From positions 188,611 to 252,610 of the IMG/VR virus record IMGVR_UViG_3300045988_119718: 64,000 bases of DNA. One strand, written 5' to 3'. The stretch's first letter is position 1, and every line of letters starts with the position of its first letter. Below, in pieces: positions 11,201-64,000 of this stretch. Source of the DNA: a virus. The notes under the pieces were generated by a model. It saw only the letters and a list, made by a program, of their open reading frames with translations, did not search any database and was not told the origin of the DNA. The position numbers were made by a program, and so were the translations under genes.

Positions 11201-14200
11201 GGTGAAGCAGTAATTCCAGCATATATGAATCCATCCTATACTGGAACTGATATAGACCCAAATAAACACGCTAAAGATGAAGCGGCTGTAGCTAAGGAAT
11301 ATGGTTTAAATGTAAAAGGTTATGCTAAAGGTACTGTAGACGACGAATCTAAAAGAGAGAAAAAAGATAAAGAGTCTATGTTTAAAGTACTAAAGGAAAA
11401 ATATCCAGCAGCTTTAGGTGAAAGTACTGTAGGTGGTATATTAGGTACTATTATAGCAGGCCCATTTGGTTTAATAGGTGGTGCTACATTAGGTGCTGCT
11501 AACTATATTCTTAAGAATTCTACTACTGCTAATAAATTCTTATTTGGTGATACTGATAAAAAAAGCTTATTAACTAGAACTAAATCTGGTTTAAGAAAAA
11601 TATTACCTAAGAGTATAACTAACTTTTTTGATGAACAGACTAAAAAAGTTAAAGATATTGGTAAGTTTACTATTGCTGGTGGTTTAGGTGGCGTAGTATT
11701 AGGAGCTGTAGGCGGTCCAGTTGGTTTAATGGGCGGCTTAATGTTAGGTGCTACTACTGGGTTGCTTAAAAATTATGAAGGTGCTCAAAACTTAATGTTT
11801 GGCAACCACAATGTAAAAGGTAATATAGATAAAATATTAGATAAGAAGTATCTTAAATCTATAGGATTAGGGGCATTAGCTGGTGGCGTATTAGGTGGCC
11901 CGTTAGGGATGCTTGGCGGTGCTATGCTTGGTGTAGCTGGTAAATACGCTTCTGATTCTGAAAAGTTTAAAGACTTTTTGTTTGGTAAGAGAAATAAAAA
12001 AGGTAAAAGAAATTATAAAAATGGTTTCTTAGGTAAGATTGGTGAAAAGATATTAGCTCCATTAGGCACATTAAAAGATGATATTGTTAAATATATGGAT
12101 AAGAATGTATTCCAGCCAATTAGTAGAGCTTTAACACCTTTAACCAGAATTACTCAGTTAGGTATGAGAAAGTTATTTAGAGGTCTTCAAAAAGGGTTCG
12201 ATGCCATTACAAATCCTTCTTTAAAAATGAGATGGTATGCTAATCTTCCTACTTTAATGAAAGGACCAGCTGGTAGATATATAGGTCATGGCTTAGCTGG
12301 TGCAGCAGGTGGGTTTATGTATGGTGGTCCATTAGGTGCATTGATTGGCGGTGTACTAGGCGGAGCATCTGCATTTAAAGTTAAAGATAAGACTATAGCA
12401 AGTTGGTTAGGAAAAGGCATAGCTACTATTGGTACTGTACCTGGTAAAGCTTTAGATTTCGTTACTAGAAAACTTGATAAGAAATTAATAGCTAAAGGTA
12501 ATATGGATTCTATTTCTATGAGTGCTAAAGACAGAGTAGACTTCATGGAAAAACATGGGTATGCATATGCTAAAGAAGAGTATAAGCAGAACGATATAAC
12601 TTTAAGAGATTCATCTGCAAGTCAGTTACAAGCTATGAAAAGTACTATTGAGATAATTAAAGAGAACAAAAAGAAGTCTAATTATGATAGAGGTAAAATA
12701 GAAAAAGAAATTAAGAATGTAGTTAAATCCATTCCTAACTTGGATTTATCTGGAATGCAGAAAATCTTAAAGATTATCAGAAATGCTATTAAGAGTAAAG
12801 ATGAAAGATCTGTGCCAGAAGCTATTGATAAAATATCTAACTATCTACGCTTAAGAGGCTTAAGTGACGATCAAATAGAAAGTTATATTAGACCTTTAAG
12901 AATAGGTATGTCTGGGTTATCCGCTAATAAAGCAGTTAAGAATGCCATGGAACAGGATACTGCTAATAGAAGTGAATATCTTAAAAAGAATTTCAATTTT
13001 AACGTAGTAGATGGTGATATAGATAAAGCTCTTGAGCAAGTTGATAGTGAATTACAGAGTAGAAAGAGTAAAGGTGAAACAGTAGAAAAAGAATCACTTG
13101 ATAAAGGCGATGCTGCTATTGTAGAATCCACTAATAAAGTCAATGATTCGATAAGATTAAGTAATATATATTTATCTGCTATTACTGATTATTTAAAATA
13201 CGGTAAAGTATCAGATGAAACAGAAAGAAAACTTAAAAAGTTTACTGCTATGGATGGCGGTAATATAGTAGCTAAAACTGATAGTAAAGACAGCATGGAA
13301 GACTCAACTTATCAATTCTCTCAGAGAACTGGTACTATGGTTAAGATGGCTAAGACTTCTGATGGTGGATATAAACCTGATACAACTGATAAAGATACTA
13401 AAGAAGCTATTGAAAAAGCAGATGCAGAACGCGATGCTATAATGTCTTTAGGTCAGTACGCTAAATCAAAACTTAAAAGTATTAAAAAGTCATTAAAGAA
13501 TCGAGCCTCTAAATTTAAAAACTCAGCAATATTTGGTGGATTTAAAGACATATTTAAAAGTATATTTGGAACACCTTTAGGCATAGTAGGAGATATACTT
13601 GGTATGATTCCAGGTGCTAATCTTCTTAAAGGCAAATTAGCAAGATTTGCTGGTAATAAATTAGGTGGTTGGGCTGATAAATTAGCTAATAAAGCTCAAA
13701 ACTTAAAAGGTACTGGTAAATTCTTAGGTAAAGTAGGCGGAAAGCTTTTAGGTGTTGGTTCATTCTTACTTAAGAATGTGGCTGATGCTGCTAGTGCTGC
13801 TGCTGATGCAGAAGAATCTACTCCTGAATTTGAAACTGAATTAGAAGCATTTAATTATATGGCTAGAAAGATTTCTGGTGTTGAAGCTGCTGTAGTAGCT
13901 ATAGATCAGTTTACAAACAACCAGATGCCTAATGCTTTAAAAGCTCCTGGTAGTATACATACTACAATAGATCCTAAAACTGGTAAACCTGTTAATGCTA
14001 AAACTGGAAAAGGCTTCCTTGGTGGATGGTTATCTTCAGCATGGACTGGTGTTACTGGAGTTGCATCCTCAGTATGGAATGGCGTAAAAGCAGTTAGTTC
14101 TAAAGCTATGTCTGCTGTTGGCTCAGTAATAGGCTGGGTACAAAATGGGTTAAAGAAAGTATTCAATTTTGCAGCTAAATTCTTACCATCTAATATTGGT

Positions 14201-16552
14201 AATAAAATATCTTCATTTGGTTCTGCAATATTAAAGAAAGTATCTAATCCTAAAGTAGCAGTTAAAGTAGCTGAAAAAGCTTCTAGTAAAGGTATACAAT
14301 TAGGATTAGGGCCTATAGGTTGGGCTTTCTTAGCAGGTAGTATTGCAGTTAGCTTCTATCAAGGATATAATAATGCTGAAACCATTTGGAAGGGTGGATC
14401 TGCTAATACCTCTTCTGATGAAGATTTATCAATGGGTGATAAAGCAATATGCGGTGTTTGCTCAGTCGTAGCTAATGAATTACTTATGGGAATAATGACC
14501 CCATCTGAAGTACTTGGTATTGCTAAATCTATATTTGGTAAGATAAAAGGTGTTACTGATACTATTAAAGAAAAAGCATCTAGTATTATGAGTACTATTT
14601 CAGGATATAAAGATAAACTTCTTAATACCGGTAAAGAAATGTGGGATAAAGTTAAGACATCATTCGGTAATGTTTGGGATGGTATTAAGAATACAGTAGG
14701 AAATGCTATTCAAACTATTAAAGATACATTTGAAAAGTTTAAAAAAATTGGATATGATACATTAGTAGAAATTCTTAAATCTCCTATTGATTGGATAAAG
14801 AAGAAAGCTAGTTCTTTATTTGGCTTTGGTGGAGATGATAAGAAAACATCAACTCCTGCTACTAATAAAACATATACTTCTCCTAAACCAACAGCAGCTG
14901 CAATTCCAGCTGATACTAGTAAAGTTGATCCTAATGTAGACCCAGATAACGGTATAGGTACAGGTGAAAATGGAACCAATACGACAAAGACTTGGAGAGA
15001 AAAGTATGACGGTATTTATGTAAGAGGTAAGAAAGTTGCTACAGGTGGGCCATTGTCTGGTAATAGCTTACTTAGATATAGATTAGCTAGTATCGGCGGT
15101 GGAGATATGACACCAGCTGCAATCTGGGATATTCTTACTACCAAATATCATTATTCTAACCAAGCTGCCGCTGCAATTATGGGTAGTATGCAACAGGAAT
15201 CTTCATTTGATCCTAATGCTAGTCAGAACGGTGGTGGCATTGAAGCTTCTATTGCACAGGGTGAAGGTACAAACGGATTTGGTCTTTGCCAGTGGACTGG
15301 TTCTAGAACACAAGCATTAGTAAACTTCTGTAGTTCTAATAATCTTGATCCTACTACTGCTGAAGGACAGATTGCTTTCATGAACTATGAAATGGGACAA
15401 AGAGGTTCTAACGCTGCATTCAATAGTGCTGGTTCAGTAGATGATGCACTTAAAGTAATGCAACAATATGAGGGATATGGCGAAGTAGGTAATAGAGACA
15501 ATTATGCTAGACAAATATTCCAGAACCAAGGTAGAGGTATAACTACTTCTGGTTCAGCTAGTGGAGGCTCTGGTAGTAAATCTTCTGGAGATAATTCTAT
15601 ATTTGGTAGAATTGATAAATTATTTGATAAAGCATTTGCTCCATTTACATCTATTTTTGGTAATATATTCGGTGGCTCTTCGGATAGTAATAGTAACTCT
15701 AGTGGTAGTGGTGGAGCAGGTAGTGCTGCGACAGATATGTCTGGAACTATAGACTCTGGTTCTACTGCTGATAAGTTGCTTGCTAATCTTAAGTCTGAAG
15801 CTGGGGGAGACGCAGTAGTAAGTGCTCCATATGGTGAAGCAAATCACCAGGGTCATACTCATGGTGGTATTGATATAGCTGCACCAGAAGGAACCCCTAT
15901 TAAATCTCCAATAGCTGGTACTGTAATAGATAATCGCTATGGTGGTGGATATGGTAACTATGTTCAAATTAAAGATAAGAACAACATGGATCACTTATTC
16001 CCACATATGGTATCTCCATCTCCGTTAAAAGAAGGTACAGAAGTATCAGTTGGCGATACTGTAGGGTATATTGGTTCTACTGGTAATTCAACTGGTCCTC
16101 ATGTCCATTATGAAATAGATGATGATGCTGTAAATAGAGGTGCTGAAACTTCTAAACCACATATAAATCCTGGTAAATATATGGGTGGTCCATTATCTGG
16201 TGATAGTACACTTAAGTTTAGAAAGAAAGTTAATGATCTTGCTAATGCTGGTAATAGAGCTGCTATCAAAGCACTTAAGAAAGGATACGGCACTGATAAT
16301 GTCGGTGTTGGAGGCCCATTACCTGGAGATAACTTAGTTAATAACAATATAGCAGTTAAAGACTACTCAGATCAGTTAAATCAAATTATTTCATTACTCA
16401 GTATAATTGCAGGTGCGGTACAATCTCAAGCTTCTACCCCAGTTGCAGCAGCTAATGTACCAACTAACATGAGTGATACTATGAGTACTACAACTCCTAA
16501 TACTTCATTATTAAATATAGTAAAGAGTATGATGAATATTGCATCTCATTAA
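8249..16552 (+). CDS. Giant (2767 aa) tape-measure-like virion protein. It has an N-terminal alpha-helical region, an Arg-rich tract (RRAARRRRKRRNRRRVRG), repeated glycine-zipper hydrophobic segments, a C-terminal lytic-transglycosylase-like domain and an M23 peptidase domain.
   Basis: M23 motifs HTHGGIDIAAPEGTPI ... GYGNYVQI ... GSTGNSTGPHVHYEI. Transglycosylase-like segment MQQESSFDP ... GLCQWTGSR. Segments GGLGGVVLGAVGGPVGLMGGLMLGA are typical of tape-measure proteins. The start could alternatively be TTG 8270, which has the SD AAAGGAGGA just upstream. Confidence 0.6.
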   Translation: MKGGNSILDKLPKVNNYMKNLGKSIKYVAINEIRETLPIVFETKETNEEAISSIRASFRNKNKLKTISTIAKDSEFYKTGNDIYKNLKSSIKTGNFYSQKRQDKADNEFMKSFMGEDFNFDDDFKDEEGFDESEDSLNENADSLNELNNDLNSGFEASATAISNTTIESARYVGETVKASAAMAYAQNSEQTFLMRTGFKSLDDGLKKLVHFNSDILQKHIQNSTTFFDNTSKLLAEQNAMMKEMLEMQRNVYKANQANENKTDFNKYANIVSSGGVVNLSEYFKNIKSNFSEWSEPIMMMLNMIKANPLEMLIQGGLSVLGSDSMKKAGADLNKTLSGTFGKYLSFLEKQAKKNGGIWDTLNDIFGVRNSKKFDIDTGNYQKGPMQFNGIANRAITEVIPGYLARIESALTGGEERFYDFAGGRWTNAKKIRNKYDKEINNARENAGLSDLFSEIGSSLNKINFDNYNGTKISSKDKDEIFNKIMQTIVDNNGDMDDKFIVKRKGKNGEGNIDFKAFYKAFGFTPSQLTESQKAMINVMATALANTSTSTRASLNNSVRQAKGSDSRFKQEIENDPNSVYRNIVNGQLSGSRFVQYAAAFGEGSMEAPDRYIPSDNLIEANGKNKKNKGRKSNDISNTSIVARKNKPVDYAKQVFYKISTVDEFIELHPSNAEPIIRAMIGYFNGLKSIEELNEKDEPIANFISMARTLDSYDYRSDCKQYADFIDLKKGRGKFSIKESQYNELPLVCKNFYTFIMSLVSKETISTSEGLAKSVDDAHNTKQEYSYDKYKGNGLFDKLDKAKGIDKLGVLMSYSKKLTSMPFDILGSVIAKTDKIIYDMFFGNEQMTDKNTGKKITGFFQLMTSKIGDTVENLYNDIKKRIWGKEQWNTYKNTVYGAFSSMVNYGKSFFDDDEEENTNTEEAKTDENAETAAETSKNKVNKNNRKNSRRAARRRRKRRNRRRVRGAAFGLGMVPETDIYTLHKGEAVIPAYMNPSYTGTDIDPNKHAKDEAAVAKEYGLNVKGYAKGTVDDESKREKKDKESMFKVLKEKYPAALGESTVGGILGTIIAGPFGLIGGATLGAANYILKNSTTANKFLFGDTDKKSLLTRTKSGLRKILPKSITNFFDEQTKKVKDIGKFTIAGGLGGVVLGAVGGPVGLMGGLMLGATTGLLKNYEGAQNLMFGNHNVKGNIDKILDKKYLKSIGLGALAGGVLGGPLGMLGGAMLGVAGKYASDSEKFKDFLFGKRNKKGKRNYKNGFLGKIGEKILAPLGTLKDDIVKYMDKNVFQPISRALTPLTRITQLGMRKLFRGLQKGFDAITNPSLKMRWYANLPTLMKGPAGRYIGHGLAGAAGGFMYGGPLGALIGGVLGGASAFKVKDKTIASWLGKGIATIGTVPGKALDFVTRKLDKKLIAKGNMDSISMSAKDRVDFMEKHGYAYAKEEYKQNDITLRDSSASQLQAMKSTIEIIKENKKKSNYDRGKIEKEIKNVVKSIPNLDLSGMQKILKIIRNAIKSKDERSVPEAIDKISNYLRLRGLSDDQIESYIRPLRIGMSGLSANKAVKNAMEQDTANRSEYLKKNFNFNVVDGDIDKALEQVDSELQSRKSKGETVEKESLDKGDAAIVESTNKVNDSIRLSNIYLSAITDYLKYGKVSDETERKLKKFTAMDGGNIVAKTDSKDSMEDSTYQFSQRTGTMVKMAKTSDGGYKPDTTDKDTKEAIEKADAERDAIMSLGQYAKSKLKSIKKSLKNRASKFKNSAIFGGFKDIFKSIFGTPLGIVGDILGMIPGANLLKGKLARFAGNKLGGWADKLANKAQNLKGTGKFLGKVGGKLLGVGSFLLKNVADAASAAADAEESTPEFETELEAFNYMARKISGVEAAVVAIDQFTNNQMPNALKAPGSIHTTIDPKTGKPVNAKTGKGFLGGWLSSAWTGVTGVASSVWNGVKAVSSKAMSAVGSVIGWVQNGLKKVFNFAAKFLPSNIGNKISSFGSAILKKVSNPKVAVKVAEKASSKGIQLGLGPIGWAFLAGSIAVSFYQGYNNAETIWKGGSANTSSDEDLSMGDKAICGVCSVVANELLMGIMTPSEVLGIAKSIFGKIKGVTDTIKEKASSIMSTISGYKDKLLNTGKEMWDKVKTSFGNVWDGIKNTVGNAIQTIKDTFEKFKKIGYDTLVEILKSPIDWIKKKASSLFGFGGDDKKTSTPATNKTYTSPKPTAAAIPADTSKVDPNVDPDNGIGTGENGTNTTKTWREKYDGIYVRGKKVATGGPLSGNSLLRYRLASIGGGDMTPAAIWDILTTKYHYSNQAAAAIMGSMQQESSFDPNASQNGGGIEASIAQGEGTNGFGLCQWTGSRTQALVNFCSSNNLDPTTAEGQIAFMNYEMGQRGSNAAFNSAGSVDDALKVMQQYEGYGEVGNRDNYARQIFQNQGRGITTSGSASGGSGSKSSGDNSIFGRIDKLFDKAFAPFTSIFGNIFGGSSDSNSNSSGSGGAGSAATDMSGTIDSGSTADKLLANLKSEAGGDAVVSAPYGEANHQGHTHGGIDIAAPEGTPIKSPIAGTVIDNRYGGGYGNYVQIKDKNNMDHLFPHMVSPSPLKEGTEVSVGDTVGYIGSTGNSTGPHVHYEIDDDAVNRGAETSKPHINPGKYMGGPLSGDSTLKFRKKVNDLANAGNRAAIKALKKGYGTDNVGVGGPLPGDNLVNNNIAVKDYSDQLNQIISLLSIIAGAVQSQASTPVAAANVPTNMSDTMSTTTPNTSLLNIVKSMMNIASH

Positions 16553-31254: not shown

Positions 31255-32115
31255 ATGCTTAATACAGATAAACCTGTAGCATATATTATAAATGAATCAT
31301 TAGAAGATGCTATTAGCTTTGATATAGTAGATGAAAACAAAACAACTGGCTTTGTTACTGCTGAAGGTATTATTCAGCAAGCTGGTAAGATGAATCGTAA
31401 TAGGAGATATTATACTCAAGAAGATCTTCATAAAGAGATTTATTCTGATAGACTTAGAGAATTGATTACGACTGGTAACTTTAAAGGTGAAGCTGGTCAT
31501 CCATTAGATATGAATCTTTCTAGACAGCAGAAAGTAGATCCAACATTAGAACAAGTTTGGTATACTAAAGTATGGATGGATGGGGATTATGTAAAAGCTC
31601 AATTTAGAGGAACTAATAATGAATTAGGTAAAGCCTTTAATGAAGATTTAAAATGTGGTCAGAAACCATCATTCTCTTTAAGATCTCTTGGTTCTATTAG
31701 AATTGTAAATGGTAAGTCCAATGTAACTAACCTTAGAATTATTACCTATGATAGAGTATATTATCCATCATATGACAATGCATACACTGAAAGAATAGTA
31801 TCTGAATCTACAGATTACAAACCATCTTCTTATCCATATGAAGAATACTTAAATTCTATGGGTAATAAACAAGTTATAGAAGAATCAGCAGATTCTATTG
31901 CTCCTATTTTGAATAAAGATGTAACTGATTTATTACTTAGAGAAAATTATAGCTTTAATCAGATTTGTGAAGACTTCTCTCCTATCTATAAATCTATTAA
32001 ACTTTCTGATGATAAGAAGAAAGTAGTTATGGTAGATGAATCTTATAATACTATTATAGTTCCTATTGATAGATATGTAACTAATAAGATTGATGAATTC
32101 TGCTCTAGATTATAA
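31255..32115 (+). CDS. Prohead core protease, T4 gp21-like (286 aa).
   Basis: EGIIQQAGKMNRNRRYY resembles T4 gp21 EGIFMQAEVVNRNKRLY. GEAGHP resembles GELNHP. LRSLGSIRI resembles SRGLGSLTD. SD AAAAGGAGG. Confidence 0.55.
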   Translation: MLNTDKPVAYIINESLEDAISFDIVDENKTTGFVTAEGIIQQAGKMNRNRRYYTQEDLHKEIYSDRLRELITTGNFKGEAGHPLDMNLSRQQKVDPTLEQVWYTKVWMDGDYVKAQFRGTNNELGKAFNEDLKCGQKPSFSLRSLGSIRIVNGKSNVTNLRIITYDRVYYPSYDNAYTERIVSESTDYKPSSYPYEEYLNSMGNKQVIEESADSIAPILNKDVTDLLLRENYSFNQICEDFSPIYKSIKLSDDKKKVVMVDESYNTIIVPIDRYVTNKIDEFCSRL

Positions 32116-32124
32116 AAAATAAAA

Positions 32125-32160
32125 ATATATACTTAGACCCATATGGGTCTAAGTATATAT
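32125..32160. terminator. Bidirectional terminator hairpin ACTTAGACCC-ATAT-GGGTCTAAGT with an AT-rich extension.
   Basis: Palindrome between convergent genes. Confidence 0.55.
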
Positions 32161-32178
32161 TTTTACATAAGTAAATTA

Positions 32179-32853
32179 TTACTTATTTTTTTGCTCTTGC
32201 TGTAGAGCTTCATTCATGAAAGCAACTAAAAGTTTCTCCATGCAATGATCTCCTACGGACTTAATCTCTTCTGCTGTAAATGTTCTTGTATACAGTTTAG
32301 AATTAGGAAAATCAATAGGCTCTTCTTCACCATTTTCGTAGAAATCTAAGTCATCGTCATCAGCATATGGATTCCATAAAATGAAATCAATAGAACCGTC
32401 TTTCTTAATATATACAGTAACGGCAAGAGGTCCACAGTGCCGATAAGAACTTGTGCTAGATTCGATTCTAACATCATTAAAATCGATAGAGCAGATATAT
32501 TTATCGGTCATTTCATACAAATATAAGAACTGATTGACATCAGTATCTGAAGGATCAATAGTAAACTCCCTATCTTCATTAGTAATGACTCTTTTACTTG
32601 ATTGCATTGGCTGCTGAGGAGGCATAAACGGATTGCATGGAAACTGCTGCTGAACAGTGGAAGGATGCCACCAATAAGTTGGCTGATACATTGGCTGCTG
32701 AGGTGGAACAGGTACACCTGGGTTATATGGAAACGGCCACGGCTGATACGGTGGGTATGGAACACAGTTTTGAGGCATACACGGCGGATATGGCTGTGGC
32801 ATAGTATTTGGTCTTTCCTCTTGACGGGTTGTGAACTTGTAATTAGTGTTCAT
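32179..32853 (-). CDS. Protein with a Pro/Gln/Tyr/Trp-rich N-terminus (224 aa).
   Basis: ORF with an unusual composition (MPQPYPPCMPQNCVPYPPYQPWPFPYNPGVPVPPQQPMYQ) for an AT-rich genome. Confidence 0.5.
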   Translation of the reverse strand: MNTNYKFTTRQEERPNTMPQPYPPCMPQNCVPYPPYQPWPFPYNPGVPVPPQQPMYQPTYWWHPSTVQQQFPCNPFMPPQQPMQSSKRVITNEDREFTIDPSDTDVNQFLYLYEMTDKYICSIDFNDVRIESSTSSYRHCGPLAVTVYIKKDGSIDFILWNPYADDDDLDFYENGEEEPIDFPNSKLYTRTFTAEEIKSVGDHCMEKLLVAFMNEALQQEQKNK

Positions 32854-32939
32854 GATATTTTCTCCTTTGGAAATAAAACATTATTATGGATAGCTAAATT
32901 GCTATCCATAATAATAGTATACAATCGTATTTCTATTTA

Positions 32940-33221
32940 TTAATACCCATTCATAGCAGCATCAGGATACATTTTTTCTCTTAAATTGGCTTCGCCTAAT
33001 ACATAAATTAATAAAATAGTAATTAAATCCTTCCCATATATATCGTAGAATATCTCAACTCTATCGGATTGAAATACTCTACGATGTACATATAAAAATT
33101 CATCATTACCATCGGTATCTTTATCTTTTTGGTTTACATATATCTCAATAGAGTGGTCTTTATTCAAAGTCACATTCGCAAATATAGGTTCATTTTGAAG
33201 TAGGCCATTTTTATATTTCAC
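32940..33221 (-). CDS. Hypothetical protein, 93 aa.
   Basis: ORF only. Confidence 0.35.
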   Translation of the reverse strand: MKYKNGLLQNEPIFANVTLNKDHSIEIYVNQKDKDTDGNDEFLYVHRRVFQSDRVEIFYDIYGKDLITILLIYVLGEANLREKMYPDAAMNGY

Positions 33222-33353
33222 AGAAAAAGTAAGCGTTAAAGCTTTATCATAGTTGTCTGTGTCATACTCAGTAGCCTCTGAATTAAGTGTATTAACTTCA
33301 AAATCTTTATGCCTTATAGGTTTATAATATACTTTTATTTCAATTCACCTTTA

Positions 33354-34034
33354 TTACTTAATTCTAAATACAGGGCTACTCATAATTGCATCGATAGCTT
33401 TGTCATTATATACATGATATTTTTTAAGACGTTTAAATAATCTATTAGCTCTTTCCCCTGTTTTATTTAAAACGAGTTTATAGCAATTCATATATCTACC
33501 ATATTCATGTACCCCTACTGAAGCTAATTTACTAAATTCAATAGTATCAGAACGATACATTTTGGTAATTACAAAAGCAATATAAATATCATTGCTATTT
33601 TTTGGAGAAATAGTACTCATAAAAACATCAGAATCATTATCTCTACAAGTTGTATTCACAATATCTAATTTATCTTTATATGAGAGCTGTACTTCATCAA
33701 GCATTCCTTCTAATTCTTGAATATAAAGCTCGAATAATAAGGATGAGGATACATCTAATAATTTAATTTTATTAAAAGTTTTATGACCTAAACAAAAGAA
33801 TTCATAAATAGCATCAGAGATATCGTTACCTGGGTCAGCGATTGCTAAAGAAATAAATGTAATTAATATAGGAAGTTTAAATTTATTAACTGTTGTGCTT
33901 AATTCTGGAAATTCTTTTCCACCAGCAACCATTATTCTTGTAATAACAAATGGAGCATCAAAATCGTCTCTTTCAATTATAATTGAATACTGATCAATAT
34001 TGCTTCCCTTATCTTTAGGCATAATATTAATCAT
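33354..34034 (-). CDS. Hypothetical protein, 226 aa.
   Basis: ORF only. Confidence 0.5.
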   Translation of the reverse strand: MINIMPKDKGSNIDQYSIIIERDDFDAPFVITRIMVAGGKEFPELSTTVNKFKLPILITFISLAIADPGNDISDAIYEFFCLGHKTFNKIKLLDVSSSLLFELYIQELEGMLDEVQLSYKDKLDIVNTTCRDNDSDVFMSTISPKNSNDIYIAFVITKMYRSDTIEFSKLASVGVHEYGRYMNCYKLVLNKTGERANRLFKRLKKYHVYNDKAIDAIMSSPVFRIK

Positions 34035-34173
34035 TACTCCTTTTGGAAGTTCATCGTTTTCAGATGAAGTTGGTAAAGCTACTACTGTAATTCCATCAAA
34101 TTTAATAACTTTATCTTTTTTAATTTTTTCATAAATTTGTTAAAGCTAATCTGGTTGTTATCGGTTTTCATTT

Positions 34174-34590
34174 TCATTTCTCCTTATAATTATCCACTAT
34201 ATACTGCATACCACTAAATTTATGAGTATCAATATACCCATAATTATTTATAAAATATTGTTTATTAGATTCTATAATTTTAATAGTATGAATATCACAA
34301 TCTGCTTCAATATTACCAACCATAAGTTGGTTAATATGGCATAACTCATGACCTACTATACGTAATATGAAAGCTCTAATTTCTTCTTCAGATTCTAATC
34401 TTTTGGTTTCATAGAGATATTTTATCATACCATATAGATTAAATACAATAGAATTATCACTATCATATTTGACAGCAATAAAATCTGCATATTCATTATT
34501 GATAATACTAATCTTTACAGCACTAATATCTAAATTAATAAGATTAGAAAAGCTATGTATAGCTCTAGGTATTACGTTCTGTAATAACAT
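34174..34590 (-). CDS. Putative HExxH zinc metallopeptidase-like protein (about 138 aa). Start revised to ATG 34590.
   Basis: Motif VGHELCHINQ. SD GAGGT upstream of ATG 34590. It overlaps the upstream gene's 3' end by about 26 nt. Confidence 0.4.
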   Translation of the reverse strand: MLLQNVIPRAIHSFSNLINLDISAVKISIINNEYADFIAVKYDSDNSIVFNLYGMIKYLYETKRLESEEEIRAFILRIVGHELCHINQLMVGNIEADCDIHTIKIIESNKQYFINNYGYIDTHKFSGMQYIVDNYKEK

Positions 34591-34972
34591 TTTTACCTCG
34601 ATATAAATTTTCAGATAAAACTTCATCAATAAATTCATACAGCCAATCGTAAAAACGACTATCGCTATTAAATGAGGGGTCAATGCCATTAGTATTTGCA
34701 AAGTATCTAGAAAATGATTTGCTATTACCATCATAGAAAGTAAATTTCATATACTGATATTCATATGGATCATAAGCTGGCATATTAAAGCCAGATAGTG
34801 GTTTTTTAAAAACACTAATAAAGCCTTTTTTACCTGCTAAATCACCTTTCTTAAAATAAATAGTGTATCTGCCTTCAGAGTTTTTTCTTAAATATACTTC
34901 GTAAGTATGCTTGTAATCTGTAAAAACTTTTTCACCATTCTTATAAAGAATCTGATAAAAATCATAATTCAT
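34565..34972 (-). CDS. Hypothetical protein, 135 aa.
   Basis: ORF only. Confidence 0.45.
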   Translation of the reverse strand: MNYDFYQILYKNGEKVFTDYKHTYEVYLRKNSEGRYTIYFKKGDLAGKKGFISVFKKPLSGFNMPAYDPYEYQYMKFTFYDGNSKSFSRYFANTNGIDPSFNSDSRFYDWLYEFIDEVLSENLYRGKNVITERNT

Positions 34973-35114
34973 TTTAATTTCCTCCTTATAAAAGAAACAA
35001 TAATAAAATTAACTTAGACTAAATATCTAAGTCATAATAATAATATATAATTTTAAAGTTTATTAAAATATGCGAATTTTAGTTTAAAACAATAATATAA
35101 GTGAGGTGATTATA

Positions 35115-35882
35115 ATGCCGATGTCTAATAGGGTTTCTCGTTTATTAGATTTAATAGAAATGCGTTTAGGAACTAAACAGCTTAATCTACCAGAATCTTT
35201 AGATAAAGATACATGGATGCATGTTATAGATATATCTACTTTAAATACATTTTCTAGATATTTTCCAGTTAAGATGCCATACTATCTTACTAATGATAGA
35301 AGAAAAGGCCCTTATTATTTAATAGATGAAAAGACTGCTGCATCTGTAGATATTATAGGTGTAGGGGATATAGATTGGCATCTGTTATCTAAAAATGCTC
35401 CAGCATTTGGATTTGGTTATGGATTCTATTCTACTTATGACTTCTTTTTAAATGGTATGGATGTAGAAGGTATAGCTGAGCAGCAAATGCTTACAGACCA
35501 TGCTAGTCTGTATAAGTGTGGTGTATATGTAGAATTTGAACCACCAAATATGGTAAGACTAGAATCTAATCTTAGTAATAATATGCTAGAAATGCTAAAA
35601 TCTATTCCTATATCTTTATTTGTAAAACATTCCCCTAACTTAATGACTATAGAGCCTACTAAGATGGAGCTGTTTGAATCACTAGCTATTTGTGATGTAG
35701 CAATATACTTGTATAATAATTTAAAGTATTATCAGAATATTGAAACCCCATATGCTAGTGCAGAATTAAATATAGATATACTTCAAGATTACTCTAATAG
35801 ACGAGATGATATAGTACAACGTATGCAGGATAGCTATGTAACATTTGCTAATAAGTCTCAACCTATGATTATGGCTATATAA
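35115..35882 (+). CDS. Hypothetical protein (about 255 aa). Start revised to ATG 35115.
   Basis: SD GTGAGGTGA lies before ATG 35115 (the track start 35106 is GTG, inside the SD). Confidence 0.55.
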   Translation: MPMSNRVSRLLDLIEMRLGTKQLNLPESLDKDTWMHVIDISTLNTFSRYFPVKMPYYLTNDRRKGPYYLIDEKTAASVDIIGVGDIDWHLLSKNAPAFGFGYGFYSTYDFFLNGMDVEGIAEQQMLTDHASLYKCGVYVEFEPPNMVRLESNLSNNMLEMLKSIPISLFVKHSPNLMTIEPTKMELFESLAICDVAIYLYNNLKYYQNIETPYASAELNIDILQDYSNRRDDIVQRMQDSYVTFANKSQPMIMAI

Positions 35883-35886
35883 CAAT

Positions 35887-35927
35887 AAAAGTATACCACA
35901 AAGGTATACTTTTATATTTTATTTTTT
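35887..35927 (+). terminator. Rho-independent terminator AAAAGTATACC-ACAA-AGGTATACTTTT followed by ATATTTTATTTTTT.
   Basis: Perfect stem followed by a T-run. Confidence 0.6.
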
Positions 35928-35944
35928 AATGAGGAGGGTTTAAT

Positions 35945-36734
35945 ATGCCGCAAACTTTAAAAGGAACTATATGGGGGGGGGGTAACCTTTAGTGCCTCTC
36001 CTGCTAAGAAGAAAGGGCAAATCTTTGTAGCTAAAGGTAGTGCTCCGTGGTATAATACTGAAGAAACATGGTATGATGTCGATGGAGTTACTAATGTGGA
36101 TGAATCTGTACCTGGTCAAGCTACAGTTACATGCGATGGTAAAGTATTTAACATGAATAATATGTTTTATGGTTGTTCTGAACTTACTTCAATAGATTTA
36201 TCCACCTTTGATACTTCTAAAGTAAACACGATGAGTGGTATGTTTGAAAACTGCAATAGTCTTGTTTCAGTGGACTTATCTAACCTTAATACCTTCAATG
36301 TACGTAGTATGATTAATATGTTTTATGGATGTAGCTCTCTTATTTCATTAGATTTATCTAGCTTTAATACTTCTAAAATAACAAATATGCGTAATATGTT
36401 CTATTTCTGTAGCTCTCTTACTACATTAGACTTATCTAGTTTTGATACTTCTAATGTATATAATATGTACATGACGTTTAGAGGATGCTCTGGCATTGGC
36501 ACAATAGATTTATCTAATTGGGACACTTCTAAAGTAACTAATATGAATTCTATGTTCTGTAATTGTAATAATCTTACTACTATCAAAGGTGTAATTGATA
36601 TGAAGTCTTGTACTGAATACGCACAGATGTTTAAGGGATGCACTAGTCTTAAAAATGTTAATATTAAGAATCCACCTGCGGACTTTGAAAGTATGAGTGG
36701 TTTATCCTCCTCACAATACACTATAGTTAGTTAG
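35945..36734 (+). CDS. DUF285/BspA-like 26-residue surface-repeat (LRR-like) protein, a candidate receptor-binding or adhesin protein. The SD/ATG start at 35945 is out of frame with the body (36096..36734 in the track) across the G10 tract at 35973-35982.
   Basis: Repeats FxxCxxLxxIDLSxFDTSKVTNMxxMF recur about five times. SD GAGGAGGG precedes ATG 35945. The frame-0 body is open from 35961 with no start codon before GTG 36096 (which has no SD). Confidence 0.5.
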
Positions 36735-36863
36735 TATAAGTTTTCTTTTTTTTTGATACATTTATGTAATACTATATTTAGTATATATAAATCATAACAA
36801 TATATTTATAATGGAGGTTTATACTATGATTTATACAGAAGAAGATTTGAAACAAGCATATAC
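36714..36863 (+). repeat. Copy 1 of a 150-bp duplicated module (promoter-like TTGATA...TATATT region, RBS and the first 13 codons of a small gene). Copy 2 lies at 63851..64000.
   Basis: Near-identical alignment with 3 indels or substitutions. Confidence 0.7.
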
Positions 36864-37209
36864 CATTGGTTATAATGAAGCTGTAGACGATGTAAACAAA
36901 TACATTGATCAAGAGTCTATGGAATTTAGCTTAGATGAATCTTATGATGATGCTTGTGATACTCATAGCGTAATTGAAGATATGGTAGCTAATGAATCCG
37001 CAGAAACTTCTCGTAGTGCTATAGAAGAGGTAATAACGGAAGCTTTATCTAAAGATAAAAAAGATCGTATCATGAAGAAACACCTTGCTAATAAATTTGA
37101 CGATATGGATCCGAAGCAAAAAGAAGGTGCAGTTGATGCATTAATAAAGCAAACCAGTGATAAAATGGGCAATAAAACTAAATCTAGTCATGGTGAAAAA
37201 AAGATCTGA
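36826..37209 (+). CDS. Small acidic hypothetical protein (about 127 aa). Start revised to ATG 36826 (MIYTEEDLKQAY...).
   Basis: SD GGAGG lies 7 nt upstream of ATG 36826. It is a paralog of the truncated gene at the window end. Confidence 0.55.
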   Translation: MIYTEEDLKQAYTIGYNEAVDDVNKYIDQESMEFSLDESYDDACDTHSVIEDMVANESAETSRSAIEEVITEALSKDKKDRIMKKHLANKFDDMDPKQKEGAVDALIKQTSDKMGNKTKSSHGEKKI

Positions 37210-37252
37210 TCCTCATTATCATTTAAAAATTAAATGATTATAATACATAAGT

Positions 37253-37284
37253 ATATCTCTACTAGGATATCCTAGTAGAGATAT
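37253..37284. terminator. Bidirectional terminator palindrome ATATCTCTACTAGGATATCCTAGTAGAGATAT.
   Basis: 16-bp arms between convergent genes. Confidence 0.55.
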
Positions 37285-37289
37285 ATATT

Positions 37290-39893
37290 TTATTTTCTTA
37301 ATTTATTATATGATTTTTCTATACTTTTAGCATTATCCATTATAGTACCAATATTTCCTATAGATAAATTACCAGATTTAACTGTATTCAATATATTCTG
37401 GGAATTATTTAATATATCTTTTAATTGTTTTTCCTTTTCTGTAACACTACCACCTTCCCCTACTTTGATTAAGTCTAGTTTAGTAGATAATGTAAATCTA
37501 TCACCAGCTTTAATAAAGTAATCTATTTTTCTAGTTAATAAGAATACTCCATCATTATTACTATGAGCATCATAGTTTTTAACTATGTATCTTTTATTAG
37601 GAGTGATTATAGTAGTATCTAAACTTGTTTTACTGATAGACAACTGATTTACATGATTCTCTAAATCTGCTTTAATATTTTTAATCATATTAGCATTATC
37701 ATTACTAAGTCTTATTAGTTTAGTACCGATATTTGCAGAATCACTAGTTGTATTATCTTTTTTATCAGAATTTTTTAAATTTAAATTTACTGCAAAGTTA
37801 GATATACCAAGCATACCTATATTAGATATATCTTTAACCATATTAATATTCTTTTGTAAATCTTGTAAATCATTTATAGAGAAACTTAATGATTTTACTC
37901 TATCTGCTAATTGATTAGCAGACTTTACAATATTCTGTAAAGATTCTTTAGCTGTTTTACTAATATCTCTAAGTTTATCCCAAGTGCCAGTTATAGTAGT
38001 TTTAATATCATTTTTAAATTCTTTTAAATCTTTAATTTGTGGAGATACTTGTTCTATAGCATTATTAATACTAAGATTAGCAGATTTAAATCTATTTACA
38101 GCATCTAGTATTCTAGTAGCAGAATCATCTATCATAGTTGTAGCTGTACTTAGATTACTAATAGATCTATCAGATTTAAAAGGATTAGGTTTAGCTTTAT
38201 TACCACCAGTATCACTATTTTGTAAAGCTATATAACCGTCCCATAAATCACTAGCATCTTTAATTATAGATTTACTAGCATTAATATAATTCTCTATTTT
38301 AAAGCATGAATTTACTCTTTCTATTAATTCTGTATTTATAGAAGTAGTATGAGAAGCAGATTGAGTTTTTAAGCTATTTACTTTATTTAGCATACTAGAT
38401 ACATTATCAGATATATTAATAGGAGATACAGAGTTAATAAAAGATGATATTCTACTCACATTGCTAGCTATGCCTATTAAGTTATTAGCTATATTCTGAT
38501 ACTTTTCAGGTAATGAATTTACTATACTATTATCAGTATTAATATTAGCTATATATGTATTTAATGTTTTAATCCATTCTTCACAACGCTCAATTTGACT
38601 ATCTGTAAGATATCTTTCAGTCCTAGTAGTAGTTCCACCAGATTCACTGCTACTAGTAGTAATAGTAACTTCTAATTTTTCCAATTCTTTAATATAATTA
38701 ATAGACCTTTTTATTAAATCTATAGCTCCATATTTATTAAAGCTATCATTAGAATCATACTCTGTTTTACCATCATATATTTGACCTAAACTATTTATAA
38801 TATCATACTTATTATTTTTTACGTCATCTGGTAAAGTTAATATACTATTGATTATATCGGTACCACTGTTTATAGCACATTTATAATCAGTTAAAGCACT
38901 AGGTATACTTTTTATAGTATTATTAGCTTTCTTTAAAGTATTATTAATACTATCTTTCATTTTATTTACAGTATTGATAGCTTCATTTACAGAGCTTAAT
39001 AAAGTTACAGACTGTTCTATAGATGGGTCTATTATTGCTTGTATTTCTGTATATAGCTTTTCAGTATCTGAATCTATAGTATAATAGCTATCTTTTACAT
39101 TTACATCAGCATAGTAGCATCCTATATCATCATTAGATTCCATACCTTCTGCTAATGCTGCTGTACTATCTAATGACCTTATATTAAACATACATGTATC
39201 ATAATCTTCACCTTGTTTTTGTACTCCATTACCAGAACTGTCTAATAGATACATACATCCAGGTTCTATATAGAATCTGTATGGGGTATCATAAAATACT
39301 TTAATATCATTAAAGAATTTTATAGTTTTAGATAATGAATCCATAGGTGGTACTATAAGCTGACTAATAGTATCATTATAAGTAAATGGAGATACACAAT
39401 ACGGATATCTAGACAAAAAATAACAAACAGAATTGAATCTAGTAGAGTTTACTAGAGTAGTATTGATAGTCTGTTTATTTGCATCTATACATTCACTAAA
39501 CATCATACCTATAGTAAAATCTATAAAGTTATCTTTCTTTTCTTTATTATCAGAGTAATCTATTTCTTTATTATAGTTTATATCTTGATCTACAAAATAT
39601 GTAGCTTTACCATAATATGGAGTAAGTTGTTTTAATTCAAGATTAGTTACTTCATTCATAAACAGCTTATAGATACTTACATAAAAACAAGCAGTTTTAA
39701 CATTAGTAATTATCTTATCCATATCATTCTTATCAGCAGTTAATGTAACTGCTAGCATTGGCATATTGGATTGCTCGTAATCATTAGTTAGCATTAAACT
39801 AGATATATTCTCATTATTAAAATTTATAGTGTCTTCAGTACCATCATCTTTGATACTAGACCATTTAAGTTCTATGAGATAGTCATATTTCAT
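37290..39893 (-). CDS. Large coiled-coil-rich structural protein, 867 aa (tail fibre or tail-associated candidate).
   Basis: ORF with long N/S/I/K-rich heptad-like regions. Confidence 0.6.
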   Translation of the reverse strand: MKYDYLIELKWSSIKDDGTEDTINFNNENISSLMLTNDYEQSNMPMLAVTLTADKNDMDKIITNVKTACFYVSIYKLFMNEVTNLELKQLTPYYGKATYFVDQDINYNKEIDYSDNKEKKDNFIDFTIGMMFSECIDANKQTINTTLVNSTRFNSVCYFLSRYPYCVSPFTYNDTISQLIVPPMDSLSKTIKFFNDIKVFYDTPYRFYIEPGCMYLLDSSGNGVQKQGEDYDTCMFNIRSLDSTAALAEGMESNDDIGCYYADVNVKDSYYTIDSDTEKLYTEIQAIIDPSIEQSVTLLSSVNEAINTVNKMKDSINNTLKKANNTIKSIPSALTDYKCAINSGTDIINSILTLPDDVKNNKYDIINSLGQIYDGKTEYDSNDSFNKYGAIDLIKRSINYIKELEKLEVTITTSSSESGGTTTRTERYLTDSQIERCEEWIKTLNTYIANINTDNSIVNSLPEKYQNIANNLIGIASNVSRISSFINSVSPINISDNVSSMLNKVNSLKTQSASHTTSINTELIERVNSCFKIENYINASKSIIKDASDLWDGYIALQNSDTGGNKAKPNPFKSDRSISNLSTATTMIDDSATRILDAVNRFKSANLSINNAIEQVSPQIKDLKEFKNDIKTTITGTWDKLRDISKTAKESLQNIVKSANQLADRVKSLSFSINDLQDLQKNINMVKDISNIGMLGISNFAVNLNLKNSDKKDNTTSDSANIGTKLIRLSNDNANMIKNIKADLENHVNQLSISKTSLDTTIITPNKRYIVKNYDAHSNNDGVFLLTRKIDYFIKAGDRFTLSTKLDLIKVGEGGSVTEKEKQLKDILNNSQNILNTVKSGNLSIGNIGTIMDNAKSIEKSYNKLRK

Positions 39894-57043: not shown

Positions 57044-57118
57044 GGTCCTATAGTTCAACGGTTAGAACGCATGCCTTATAAGCGTGTCATGAAGTTTCGA
57101 CTACTTCTAGGACCACCA
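57044..57118 (+). tRNA. tRNA-Ile (anticodon UAU) with encoded CCA.
   Basis: Manual cloverleaf: acceptor GGTCCTA/TAGGACC, anticodon arm CATGC-CTTATAA-GCGTG, T-loop TTCGACT. Confidence 0.6.
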
Positions 57119-57138
57119 TTTTATTATATACTTACAAC

Positions 57139-57226
57139 GGATGTATGGCCGAGTGGTTTAAGGCACCAGTCTTGAAAACTGGCATAGAGAAATCTATCTG
57201 GGGTTCAAATCCCTATGCATCCGCCA
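57139..57226 (+). tRNA. tRNA-Ser (anticodon UGA), long variable arm, with CCA.
   Basis: Acceptor GGATGTA/TGCATCC, anticodon arm CCAGT-CTTGAAA-ACTGG, discriminator G. Confidence 0.65.
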
Positions 57227-57233
57227 TTTTTAT

Positions 57234-57309
57234 TCCTGAATAGCTCAGTCGGTAGAGCGTGTGACTGTTAATCACAATGTCGTAGGTTCGATCCCTACTT
57301 CAGGAGCCA
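57234..57309 (+). tRNA. tRNA-Asn (anticodon GUU) with CCA.
   Basis: Acceptor TCCTGAA/TTCAGGA, D-arm AGCTCAGTCGGTAGAGC, anticodon loop CTGTTAA, T-loop TTCGATC. Confidence 0.7.
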
Positions 57310-57310
57310 T

Positions 57311-57385
57311 CGGGGAATAGTACAAAGGTCAGTATGCTTGGCTTTGACCCAAGAGATTTGAGTTCGATTCTCAATTCCCCTGCCA
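57311..57385 (+). tRNA. tRNA-Gln (anticodon UUG) with CCA. There is a 1-72 mismatch.
   Basis: Anticodon arm CTTGG-CTTTGAC-CCAAG, T-arm TTGAG-TTCGATT-CTCAA, discriminator G. Confidence 0.55.
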
Positions 57386-63794: not shown

Positions 63795-63850
63795 ATGAGA
63801 TTCATTATTATATTATATAATTGAAAAAATTTATACAACTATAAAAATCT

Positions 63851-64000
63851 CAATACACTATAGTTAGTTAGTATAAGTTTTCTTTTTTTTGATACATTTA
63901 TGTAATACTATATTTAGTATATATAAATCATAAACAATATATTTTTAATGGAGGTTTATACTATGATTTATACAGAAGAAGATTTGAAACAAGCATATAC
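63851..64000 (+). repeat. Copy 2 of the 150-bp duplicated promoter/RBS/5'-coding module (matches 36714..36863). It extends to the window edge.
   Basis: Near-identical alignment. Confidence 0.7.
63963..64000 (+). CDS. 5' end of a paralog of the 36826 gene (MIYTEEDLKQAY...), truncated by the window edge.
   Basis: Identical first 13 codons and RBS. Confidence 0.5.
   Translation, partial: MIYTEEDLKQAY

Follow-up and report, generated by a model that had tools for sequence, protein, structure and literature searches.

How can a phage gene keep a long, intact coding sequence when its start codon, preceded by a strong Shine-Dalgarno sequence (SD), is out of frame with it? The question is raised by a locus in a 64,000-nucleotide stretch of viral DNA (hereafter the window; positions 188,611 to 252,610 of the IMG/VR virus record IMGVR_UViG_3300045988_119718). 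An ATG at position 35945 opens a short frame, the long frame of a DUF285/PARCEL-repeat protein lies in another phase, and the two overlap exactly at a homopolymer of ten G (G10). We propose that the locus is probably a slipped-strand contingency locus acting at the DNA level, with the G10 as its switch, a reading of the sequence comparisons in which we have reasonable though not full confidence. The main point to emerge from these comparisons is that the tract is part of a conserved leader cassette common to many genes.

The first-pass annotation of the window had described the SD, the ATG, the short and the long frame, a GTG at 36096 and the G-run, all of which are indeed found by direct reading of the sequence (Table 1). 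The body frame of 257 codons runs uninterrupted from 35961 as far as TAG 36732-36734 and contains no ATG, GTG or TTG before GTG 36096. The same annotation considered the run extraordinary for an AT-rich genome, and the calculation bears this out: at 28% guanine plus cytosine, a sequence of 64 kb is expected to hold 0.0003 (under independent bases) to 0.0009 (under a first-order Markov model) runs of at least ten G, so that the G10, the longest G or C run of the window, is about 1000-fold unexpected for the composition. GGG accounts for 7.8% of the Gly codons in the long open reading frames (ORFs) of the window. When the tract was rebuilt in silico, the leader ORF ran on into the DUF285 body at G9 (262-aa fusion) or G12 (263-aa fusion), and it terminated 12-16 codons from ATG 35945 at G8, G10, G11 and G13. 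ATG 35945 had been regarded as the only good start; its SD is strong, but a second ATG (35971-35973), overlapping the tract and lying 5 nt downstream of an SD-like AAAGGA (35960-35965), had been overlooked. It stands in the third frame, and a length of G11 or G8 would bring it into the frame of the body. The claim that a change of one G would fuse the start to the body thus holds for a loss (G9), whereas after a gain (G11) it is the in-tract ATG that would read into the body. The junction peptides predicted are TIWGGVTFSASPAK for the G9 type, GGGVTFSASPAK for the in-tract start and TIWGGGNLSASPAK for a +1 shift at CUU UAG, and GGAGGTGGC is an example of a locked version of the tract. A search of Rfam gave nothing at the tract, a sub-threshold STnc290 match being the terminator-like hairpin upstream.

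The SD, the leader and the tract recur as a unit. A total of 34 distinct modules, duplicates removed (33 retrieved by regular expression, plus that of locus L170), was collected from related phage genomes of ~230-267 kb; the metagenome scan returned 83 stretches, and about 60 of these, chance G-runs within unrelated sequence, were dropped by requiring the SD, the ATG, the leader and a downstream TAAC..TTAGT motif. At the DNA level the module consists of an SD, an ATG, three variable codons, TTAAAAGGAACTATA(T/C), the G-run and TAAC.TTTAGTGC, with M-x-x-T-L-K-G-T-I-W-G-G-V-T-F-S-A-S-P-A as the encoded leader peptide, and all modules have comparable SDs (AAGGAG, AAAGGA) ahead of the ATG. In a set of 25 modules, the 16 nt preceding the tract are at least 95% invariant, synonymous sites included, codons 2-4 are variable, and divergence of the bodies sets in within ~25 nt past the tract. 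Within ~285 kb of partly redundant sequence from this lineage, 32 of the 41 distinct runs of eight or more G are in the leader context.

Three unrelated families of bodies carry this leader. Family A comprises the DUF285 proteins (205-494 aa, ending in GLSSSQYTIVS), family B proteins of 113-146 aa in which hypervariable segments rich in indels are set in a conserved frame (SASPATVSVPTG ... YVGVTP ... ISWSPEINTHTPDVTDY), and family C proteins of ~150 aa ending in VKVTCTLL; for families B and C, Pfam and PHROGs gave only sub-threshold noise. Three modules are present in one 231-kb IMG/VR genome and at least six, in different states, in one 227-kb genome. Homologs of the repaired protein differ in their N-termini, which are MPQTLKGTIWGGV... 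(G9-type fusion; P0002, P0003), MGGGV... (in-tract ATG), a read-through in the third frame or, in other lineages, a start that lacks the leader altogether, and gene callers place the starts of many homologs at MGGGV.... The second ATG is found only in the W-type leader (ATATGGG), being absent from the R-type and the other leader variants. Abundant sister lineages encode the same proteins without poly-G: their DUF285 proteins start with MSKxQVFIAKG... (MSKEQVFIAKG...; P0018, P0027, P0036 and others), and their family B proteins (P0252-P0271) have homologous N-termini, MKSGTFTNNTSFTASAAQ... or MKSGTFTNNTSFTASAAQVNVPT..., free of G-runs. The tract therefore appears to be an added regulatory feature rather than a structural need, and the sister-lineage proteins can be regarded, on sequence grounds, as natural 'locked-on' controls for the putative switch.

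Beyond these phages the leader was not encountered. No match to its pattern was obtained in 185,579 representative bacterial and archaeal genomes, which therefore offer neither a prophage copy nor a clue to the host. In cultured phages the tblastn matches start at about residue 43-72, inside the repeats, and none spans residues 1-65; megablast of 35100-37300 against 50,697 GenBank phages returned no match, and a scan of IMG/VR for the exact leader retrieved one contig only. In the literature searched, the cassette is unreported.

The first-pass annotation had supposed that switching would occur through tract length, and this length indeed differs among relatives. Over the 34 modules it ranges from G7 (1) through G8 (3), G9 (6), G10 (15) and G11 (7) to G12 (2), and the homopolymer is pure in every one of them, in-frame modules included. 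Eight modules are in frame with the SD-backed ATG, four only through the in-tract ATG, and 22 are off. The length that restores the frame depends on the leader variant: leaders of the ...ATA TGG type need G9 or G12, whereas those of the ...ATT type need G10 (L113:4581). In the genomic slot occupied by the window gene, orthologs have a pure G9, in frame (L187, L188), a G10 (the window, L174, L081) or a G11 (L082, L128, L177), the in-tract ATG of L082 and L128 being in frame; in L170 the slot holds a 494-aa DUF285 gene with an in-frame G9, and L173, L175 and L176 have no cassette there. Near-isogenic modules differ at the tract only: L163 and L113 (G12 vs. G10) have flanks 98-98.7% identical and without indels, and L118 and L129 (G12 vs. 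G9) have flanks 98.4-99.7% identical and no other indels. Comparison of these sequences, both within the slot and between near-isogenic modules, supports a hypermutable tract.

The allele of the window itself is highly reproducible. Eight contigs, drawn from at least 6 samples and from two assembly sets that are named differently, encode the 212-aa product read from its GTG, all with G10; one of them (ERZ27229725 k119_143398, 252,690 bp) is 100% identical to window 32115-38882, and the closest IMG/VR relative likewise has G10. The G10 is therefore the reproducible consensus of this allele and almost certainly not an assembly error, an alternative that had been left standing when the locus was first described. 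Poly-G also varies in length in other coding contexts of the lineage, such as ...TCTGGAGTTATTGT followed by G9, G9 or G11 and AATATTTAC..., or ...AACGTTAGT followed by G10 or G9 and TAATTAATAGTG..., so the lineage holds other candidate contingency loci outside the leader.

Off alleles are maintained in a form that a change of tract length would repair. At the composition of the window, 257 open codons would arise by chance with P = 1.6e-10, and one change in tract length is enough to give each of the 22 off modules its full ORF back. The ratio of non-synonymous to synonymous substitution rates (dN/dS; approximate, given mis-registration of the repeats) is mostly ~0.5-0.6 among orthologous DUF285 alleles, and pairs of off alleles do not score higher than pairs that include in-frame alleles. 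In-frame alleles retain an uninterrupted G9 or G12 instead of a stabilised, interrupted sequence coding for Gly-Gly. Taken together, the intact bodies, the dN/dS values and the uninterrupted tract speak for selection acting on the homopolymer as such, and not for mere decay of the gene. A different condition was observed in a DUF285 paralog at the end of an IMG/VR contig (L085:1900-1990, minus strand), which combines an out-of-frame G9 leader with another frameshift close to its 3' end, reading ACTATAAAGGCGTGATTGATATG as against ...AAAGGTGTAATTGAT... in its relatives; this paralog could be a genuine pseudogene or reflect an error at the end of the contig.

In the mechanism we propose, the polymerase would slip on the homopolymer during replication of the phage DNA, giving progeny with differing tract lengths. 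With G9 or G12, the SD and ATG 35945 would direct synthesis of a protein of ~262 aa, made of a flexible leader of ~20 residues and a leucine-rich repeat (LRR)-type DUF285/PARCEL binding domain; with G10, as in the genome of the window, translation would end after 15 codons and the gene would be off; with G11 or G8, only the in-tract ATG behind AAAGGA would be in frame, and it may yield a form with a short leader. The same cassette of SD, leader and poly-G stands, at several loci of a genome, before small binding-type proteins of three or more unrelated families, so that different combinations of them could be displayed within one phage population.

Several observations weigh against this reading. 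The exact allele of the window has G10 in every assembly, its consensus being stably off across the samples, and the switching of this allele is thus inferred rather than observed. The G11 product of the same allele is absent from the records of the assembly collection, and the protein search gave no relative of at least 90% identity with an in-frame start, the best match being at 81%. The data are consensus assemblies, so that heterogeneity within populations and reversibility, the properties that define phase variation, are predictions of this reading, and short-read assemblies carry some error in homopolymer length. About two thirds of the modules are off. The state encountered most often, in 17 of 33, is that of 'one G too many', although this does not depart significantly from chance (chi-square ~3.8-4.2, p ~0.12-0.15, obtained on earlier tallies of 25 and 30 modules, not on the final 33-34, and with modules that are not independent). 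The role in the virion or in receptor binding is suggested by context and weak fold similarity only. Lastly, the excess of off states leaves room for correction at the RNA or ribosomal level.

Such correction would amount to constitutive recoding, in which the gene is expressed from G10 through stuttering of the RNA polymerase or a +1 shift of the ribosome, and the length of the tract in the DNA matters little; the shift would take place on the G-run itself or on the prfB-like CUU UAG located 4 nt past it, with the G-run in the part of an SD. Transcriptional slippage is known at homopolymers of at least 9 nt, and AR9-like phages, to which the phage of the window is distantly related through a 959-aa protein, encode their own RNA polymerases. 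Recoding would accommodate G10 as the commonest state (15 of 33 modules), the 17 modules that need to lose one G, the stable consensus of the window allele in at least 6 samples, and a constraint on off alleles similar to that on alleles in frame; moreover, a +1 shift at CUU_U would give MPQTLKGTIWGGGNL followed by SASPAKK..., near-identical to the G9 product. A recoding signal should, nevertheless, have a fixed length, and the presence of all three frame states and of G7-G12 over the 34 modules, eight of them plainly in frame, disfavours the programmed slippage that had initially been put forward beside phase variation. Nor is the CUU kept, as modules in the same frame state (L081, L084, L089, L104, L151, L158) have GAU, GUU, AUU or UAU before the stop, so that the prfB-like site is retained only as a low-probability rival. 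In the autoregulation of release factor 2 of Escherichia coli, prfB presents AGGGGG, 3 nt and CUU UGA; the likeness is imperfect, since the G-run is here followed by UAAC (4 nt, not 3) and by CUU UAG (not UGA). Rfam offers no element at the site, and recoding leaves the differences in DNA tract length between near-isogenic modules unexplained. We consider it unlikely as the main explanation but take it seriously as a contributor, and slippage may add a leaky expression on top of switching at the DNA level.

The same constancy of G10 in all samples with the window allele could alternatively mark a silenced accessory gene, its frameshift having become fixed through drift or because expression was selected against, and its cassette heading to loss without any switching. 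The slot is indeed dispensable, L173, L175 and L176 having an identical neighbour protein and no cassette, most modules are off, and the L085 paralog bears a second frameshift. Against silencing stand the intact 257-codon frame and a dN/dS that is not relaxed in off alleles, the repair of all 22 off modules by one change of tract length, the far better conservation of the homopolymer and its 16-nt context as compared with the surroundings, and the pure G9 or G12 kept by in-frame alleles; this outcome seems to us quite improbable. A sequencing or assembly artefact, with a true tract of G9 and an ordinary ORF, would draw on the proneness to error of homopolymers of ten or more, and one related contig does end at the leader tract beside a remnant of a Nextera adapter (ATGTGTATAAGAGACAGAGT, G9, ACTAACG...), which indicates that assemblies tend to break at tracts and that some public contigs hold untrimmed adapter. 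However, the agreement on G10 among the 8 contigs and the closest IMG/VR relative, together with systematic differences from G7 to G12 over 34 modules with indel-free flanks, makes such an artefact very improbable. Slipped-strand switching at the DNA level is thus the reading we retain.

The identification of the body as a DUF285 protein with 26-residue repeats, initially made from the sequence alone, was confirmed by profile searches: PF03382 matched with E=2.2e-36 (124.7 bits, cut-off 25) and the 26-residue PARCEL repeat TIGR02167 with E=1.9e-56 (187 bits, cut-off 30) in 5 stretches, and the DNA of the body has a period of 78 nt. The AlphaFold model of the DUF285 homolog P0012 is an LRR solenoid with a confidence score (pLDDT, predicted local distance difference test) of 93.5, in which residues 1-20 score 47-57 and are drawn as a hairpin with the tract-encoded W-G-G as its turn. 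That of the family B protein P0241 is a beta-sandwich (pLDDT 85.4) with residues 1-19 below 50. Low scores of the leader on two different folds suggest that it is a flexible N-terminal extension, independent of the fold of the body, and in these models the extra Gly of G12 with respect to G9 would fall in the turn. When the DUF285 model was compared with PDB by Foldseek, every match had E>1e-3 and was a generic LRR ectodomain.

The leader MPQTLKGTIWGG has no hydrophobic secretion signal or lipobox, unlike the bacterial DUF285/PARCEL members, and the label of surface adhesin, which the first-pass annotation had borrowed from them, therefore does not transfer directly. The genomic context and a weak similarity of fold make a receptor-binding or host-range role plausible: the window gene is flanked by that of a virion structural protein on one side and by tail- or baseplate-like genes on the other, and modules at other loci are found two genes downstream of Gp10_C-like baseplate proteins and adjoining fibre-like proteins. 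A common leader on diverse binding-type domains near tail and baseplate genes suggests that it may be the peptide by which exchangeable decorations or receptor-binding tips dock onto the virion. A capsid-targeting leader of the T4 type was set aside, the leader having no Glu cleavage motif and the modules lying beside baseplate or fibre-like genes.

A bolder extension, which we regard as less likely than not, is that the cassette constitutes a portable three-state switch placed before a whole repertoire of binding proteins, with a long leader at G9/G12, a short leader at G8/G11 and the off state at G7/G10, and that the leader may also be a recombination site by which bodies are moved. If this were true, at least six loci per genome would switch independently, and a single burst would hold dozens of virion types. 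Two ~266-kb NCBI assemblies, CACVIG01 (L082) and CACVII01 (L083), touch on the recombination part: they encode an identical DUF285 protein and have 6.8 kb in common at 99.9% identity from the leader onward, and their upstream regions are unrelated (a head-gene block vs. a baseplate block with a family C module), the breakpoint (L082:5962 vs. L083:5961, window 35955) falling inside the conserved leader. Either leader-mediated recombination moving bodies between expression sites or a misjoined assembly at the repeat could account for this arrangement.

The phage itself is apparently a widespread jumbo phage from the human gut. The exact 255-aa protein encoded next to the cassette was found in 459 blocks of the public assembly collection, whose sample names suggest human-gut cohorts, and related contigs measure 215-267 kb. 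The 959-aa protein of the window has 23-25% identity to proteins of AR9, Staphylococcus jumbo phages, Listeria LPJP1 and Fusobacterium JD-Fnp1. Given this distant AR9/PBS1-like relationship, two very large ORFs (2487-6833, minus strand, 1448 aa; 8249-16552, plus strand, 2767 aa) may encode a phage multisubunit RNA polymerase or giant virion proteins. Four tRNA genes, Ile(TAT), Ser(TGA), Asn(GTT) and Gln(TTG), are located at 57044-57385, and the window has no tRNA-Gly for GGG.

Downstream of the conserved neighbour gene, the slot (35883-36810) is polymorphic. Its content differs among L169-L178, whose neighbour protein is identical: a DUF285 cassette of 210-494 aa in some, extra small genes in L169, and nothing in others. 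Among the first 80 viral loci reached via the neighbour gene, L001 alone has a DUF285 gene or the tract at this place, which makes the cassette accessory. The terminator-like hairpin is conserved before the cassettes of L082, L187 and L188, and a weak baseplate/tail match lies near the cassette on the minus strand. The sequence that follows the stop codon (36735-36890) recurs at the end of the window (63848-64000), with 94-99% identity in comparisons with relatives; the repeated element, previously annotated as a 'duplicated promoter module', consists of a T-run, GATACATTTATGTAATACTATATTTAGTATA..., an SD and the first codons of a 132-aa gene (MIYTEEDLKQ). In L173 and L176, which have no cassette, this promoter-like element directly follows the neighbour gene. 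The only other long G-run of the window (G8, 1657-1664) stands in a non-leader context, within a G-rich non-coding patch (GGAGGGAAAGGGGGATGGGGGTTCTAGGGGGTAGGGGGGGGAAGGGAACC, 1596-1680) of a gene-free region of ~1.8 kb (660-2487) that also contains repeated GTTTATAA(TT) motifs and several hairpins. This patch could form a G-quadruplex or belong to an origin or a regulatory region.

Table 1. Position of the cassette elements and of neighbouring genes (window coordinates).
Feature	Position	Strand	Description
T4-type head maturation protease	31255-32115		
Virion structural protein, phrog_18911	35115-35882	+	255 aa; conserved anchor of the variable cassette slot
Terminator-like hairpin	35885-35915	+	13-bp stem, T-rich tail; ends the upstream virion-protein gene; 5' edge of the cassette slot
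Shine-Dalgarno sequence GAGGAGGG	35931-35938	+	6 nt 5' of ATG 35945; direct sequence reading
Leader ORF at G10	35945-35992	+	MPQTLKGTIWGGGNL, then TAG 35990-35992; 15 codons; ATG at 35945-35947
Invariant leader core TTAAAAGGAACTATAT	35957-35972	+	Contains the SD-like AAAGGA
Second ATG overlapping the tract (ATatgGGG)	35971-35985	+	At G10 reads MGGG, then TAA
G10 homopolymer, putative switch element	35973-35982	+	Encodes the leader Gly-Gly(-Gly) turn, codons 10-13
DUF285/PARCEL-repeat body	35982-36734	+	VTFSASPAKKKGQIFVAKGSAPWYN...; LRR-type 26-residue repeats; C-terminal cap ...GLSSSQYTIVS
CTT TAG closing the short ORF	35987-35992	+	4 nt past the G-run; superficial likeness to the prfB +1 frameshift site; part of the recoding alternative only
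GTG-started ORF	36096-36734	+	212 aa; call made by gene callers for the off state; without SD and without the conserved N-terminal region

Phages with poly-G tracts in host-interaction genes have precedents. Fletchervirus phages of Campylobacter carry G7-G11 tracts in genes for receptor-binding proteins (Sorensen et al. 2021, Cell Rep 35:109214, as summarised in bioRxiv 10.1101/2025.10.21.683753). As far as that summary describes them, they resemble the phages considered here in being AT-rich and of the lytic myovirus type, in having several coding tracts per genome in putative host-interaction genes, and, if our reading holds, in frameshift-generated on and off sub-populations. There is, however, no sequence relationship, none of the 76 records matched by tblastn among 50,697 phage records being a Campylobacter phage. 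Unlike the tracts outlined in that summary, the one studied here is embedded in a conserved, portable 5' leader of ~20 codons common to unrelated bodies, and its bearer is an AR9-like jumbo phage of ~250 kb from apparently human-gut metagenomes, known here from sequence alone. In coliphages T2 and T4, homopolymers of contingency loci mutate reversibly by polymerase slippage, with population heterogeneity and bet-hedging as a consequence, and the runs are mostly short (at least 6), spread over many gene classes and depleted in tail-fibre genes (Gomez, Barrick and Waters, bioRxiv 10.1101/2025.10.21.683753). The runs reported here are in contrast long (up to 12 G), occur in a genome of 28% GC and are concentrated in one leader cassette (32 of 41).

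Outside phages, the closest logic is that of the lic loci of Haemophilus influenzae, where 5'-CAAT repeats follow two ATGs in different frames. There as here the repeat lies just past the start, and with two ATGs two of the three phases could give a product; those loci are, however, bacterial and tetranucleotide, while the second ATG of the phage cassette overlaps the homopolymer, is limited to the W-type leader and would be used only if the proposed mechanism holds. The internal proteins of T4 carry a conserved N-terminal capsid-targeting sequence on diverse bodies, with no homopolymer, and the likeness lies in a short conserved N-terminal leader on unrelated small proteins of a phage with a T4-type (S77) protease; the leader described here differs in lacking a Glu-containing protease site, and its modules are found beside baseplate (Gp10_C-like) and fibre-like genes, not head-core genes. 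The invertible G segment of Mu and C segment of P1, and the retroelement acting on Mtd of BPP-1, are likewise phage-encoded means to diversify or switch host-binding proteins, but they use site-specific inversion or mutagenic retrohoming; neither an invertase nor a reverse transcriptase was noticed beside the cassette, though no search aimed at them was made.

To our knowledge, experimental work on phase-variable poly-G genes of phages has dealt with Campylobacter phages only and, lately, with short repeats in coliphages. The finding would extend the principle of poly-G phase variation to an uncultured jumbo phage, and with a new architecture, in which several unrelated, hypervariable binding-type proteins of one genome have a single conserved G-run leader in common. 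If these proteins are borne on the virion, a population would be a mix of particle types, with a bearing on estimates of host range and on the coexistence of phages and bacteria in the gut. Metagenomic gene callers now report such genes as truncated or mis-started ORFs, and the leader is an easily searched marker for more switches of this kind. What is new with respect to the systems above is the shared leader cassette conserved at the nucleotide level, the possible three-state logic with two starts, and their occurrence in a prevalent, uncultured AR9-like jumbo phage.

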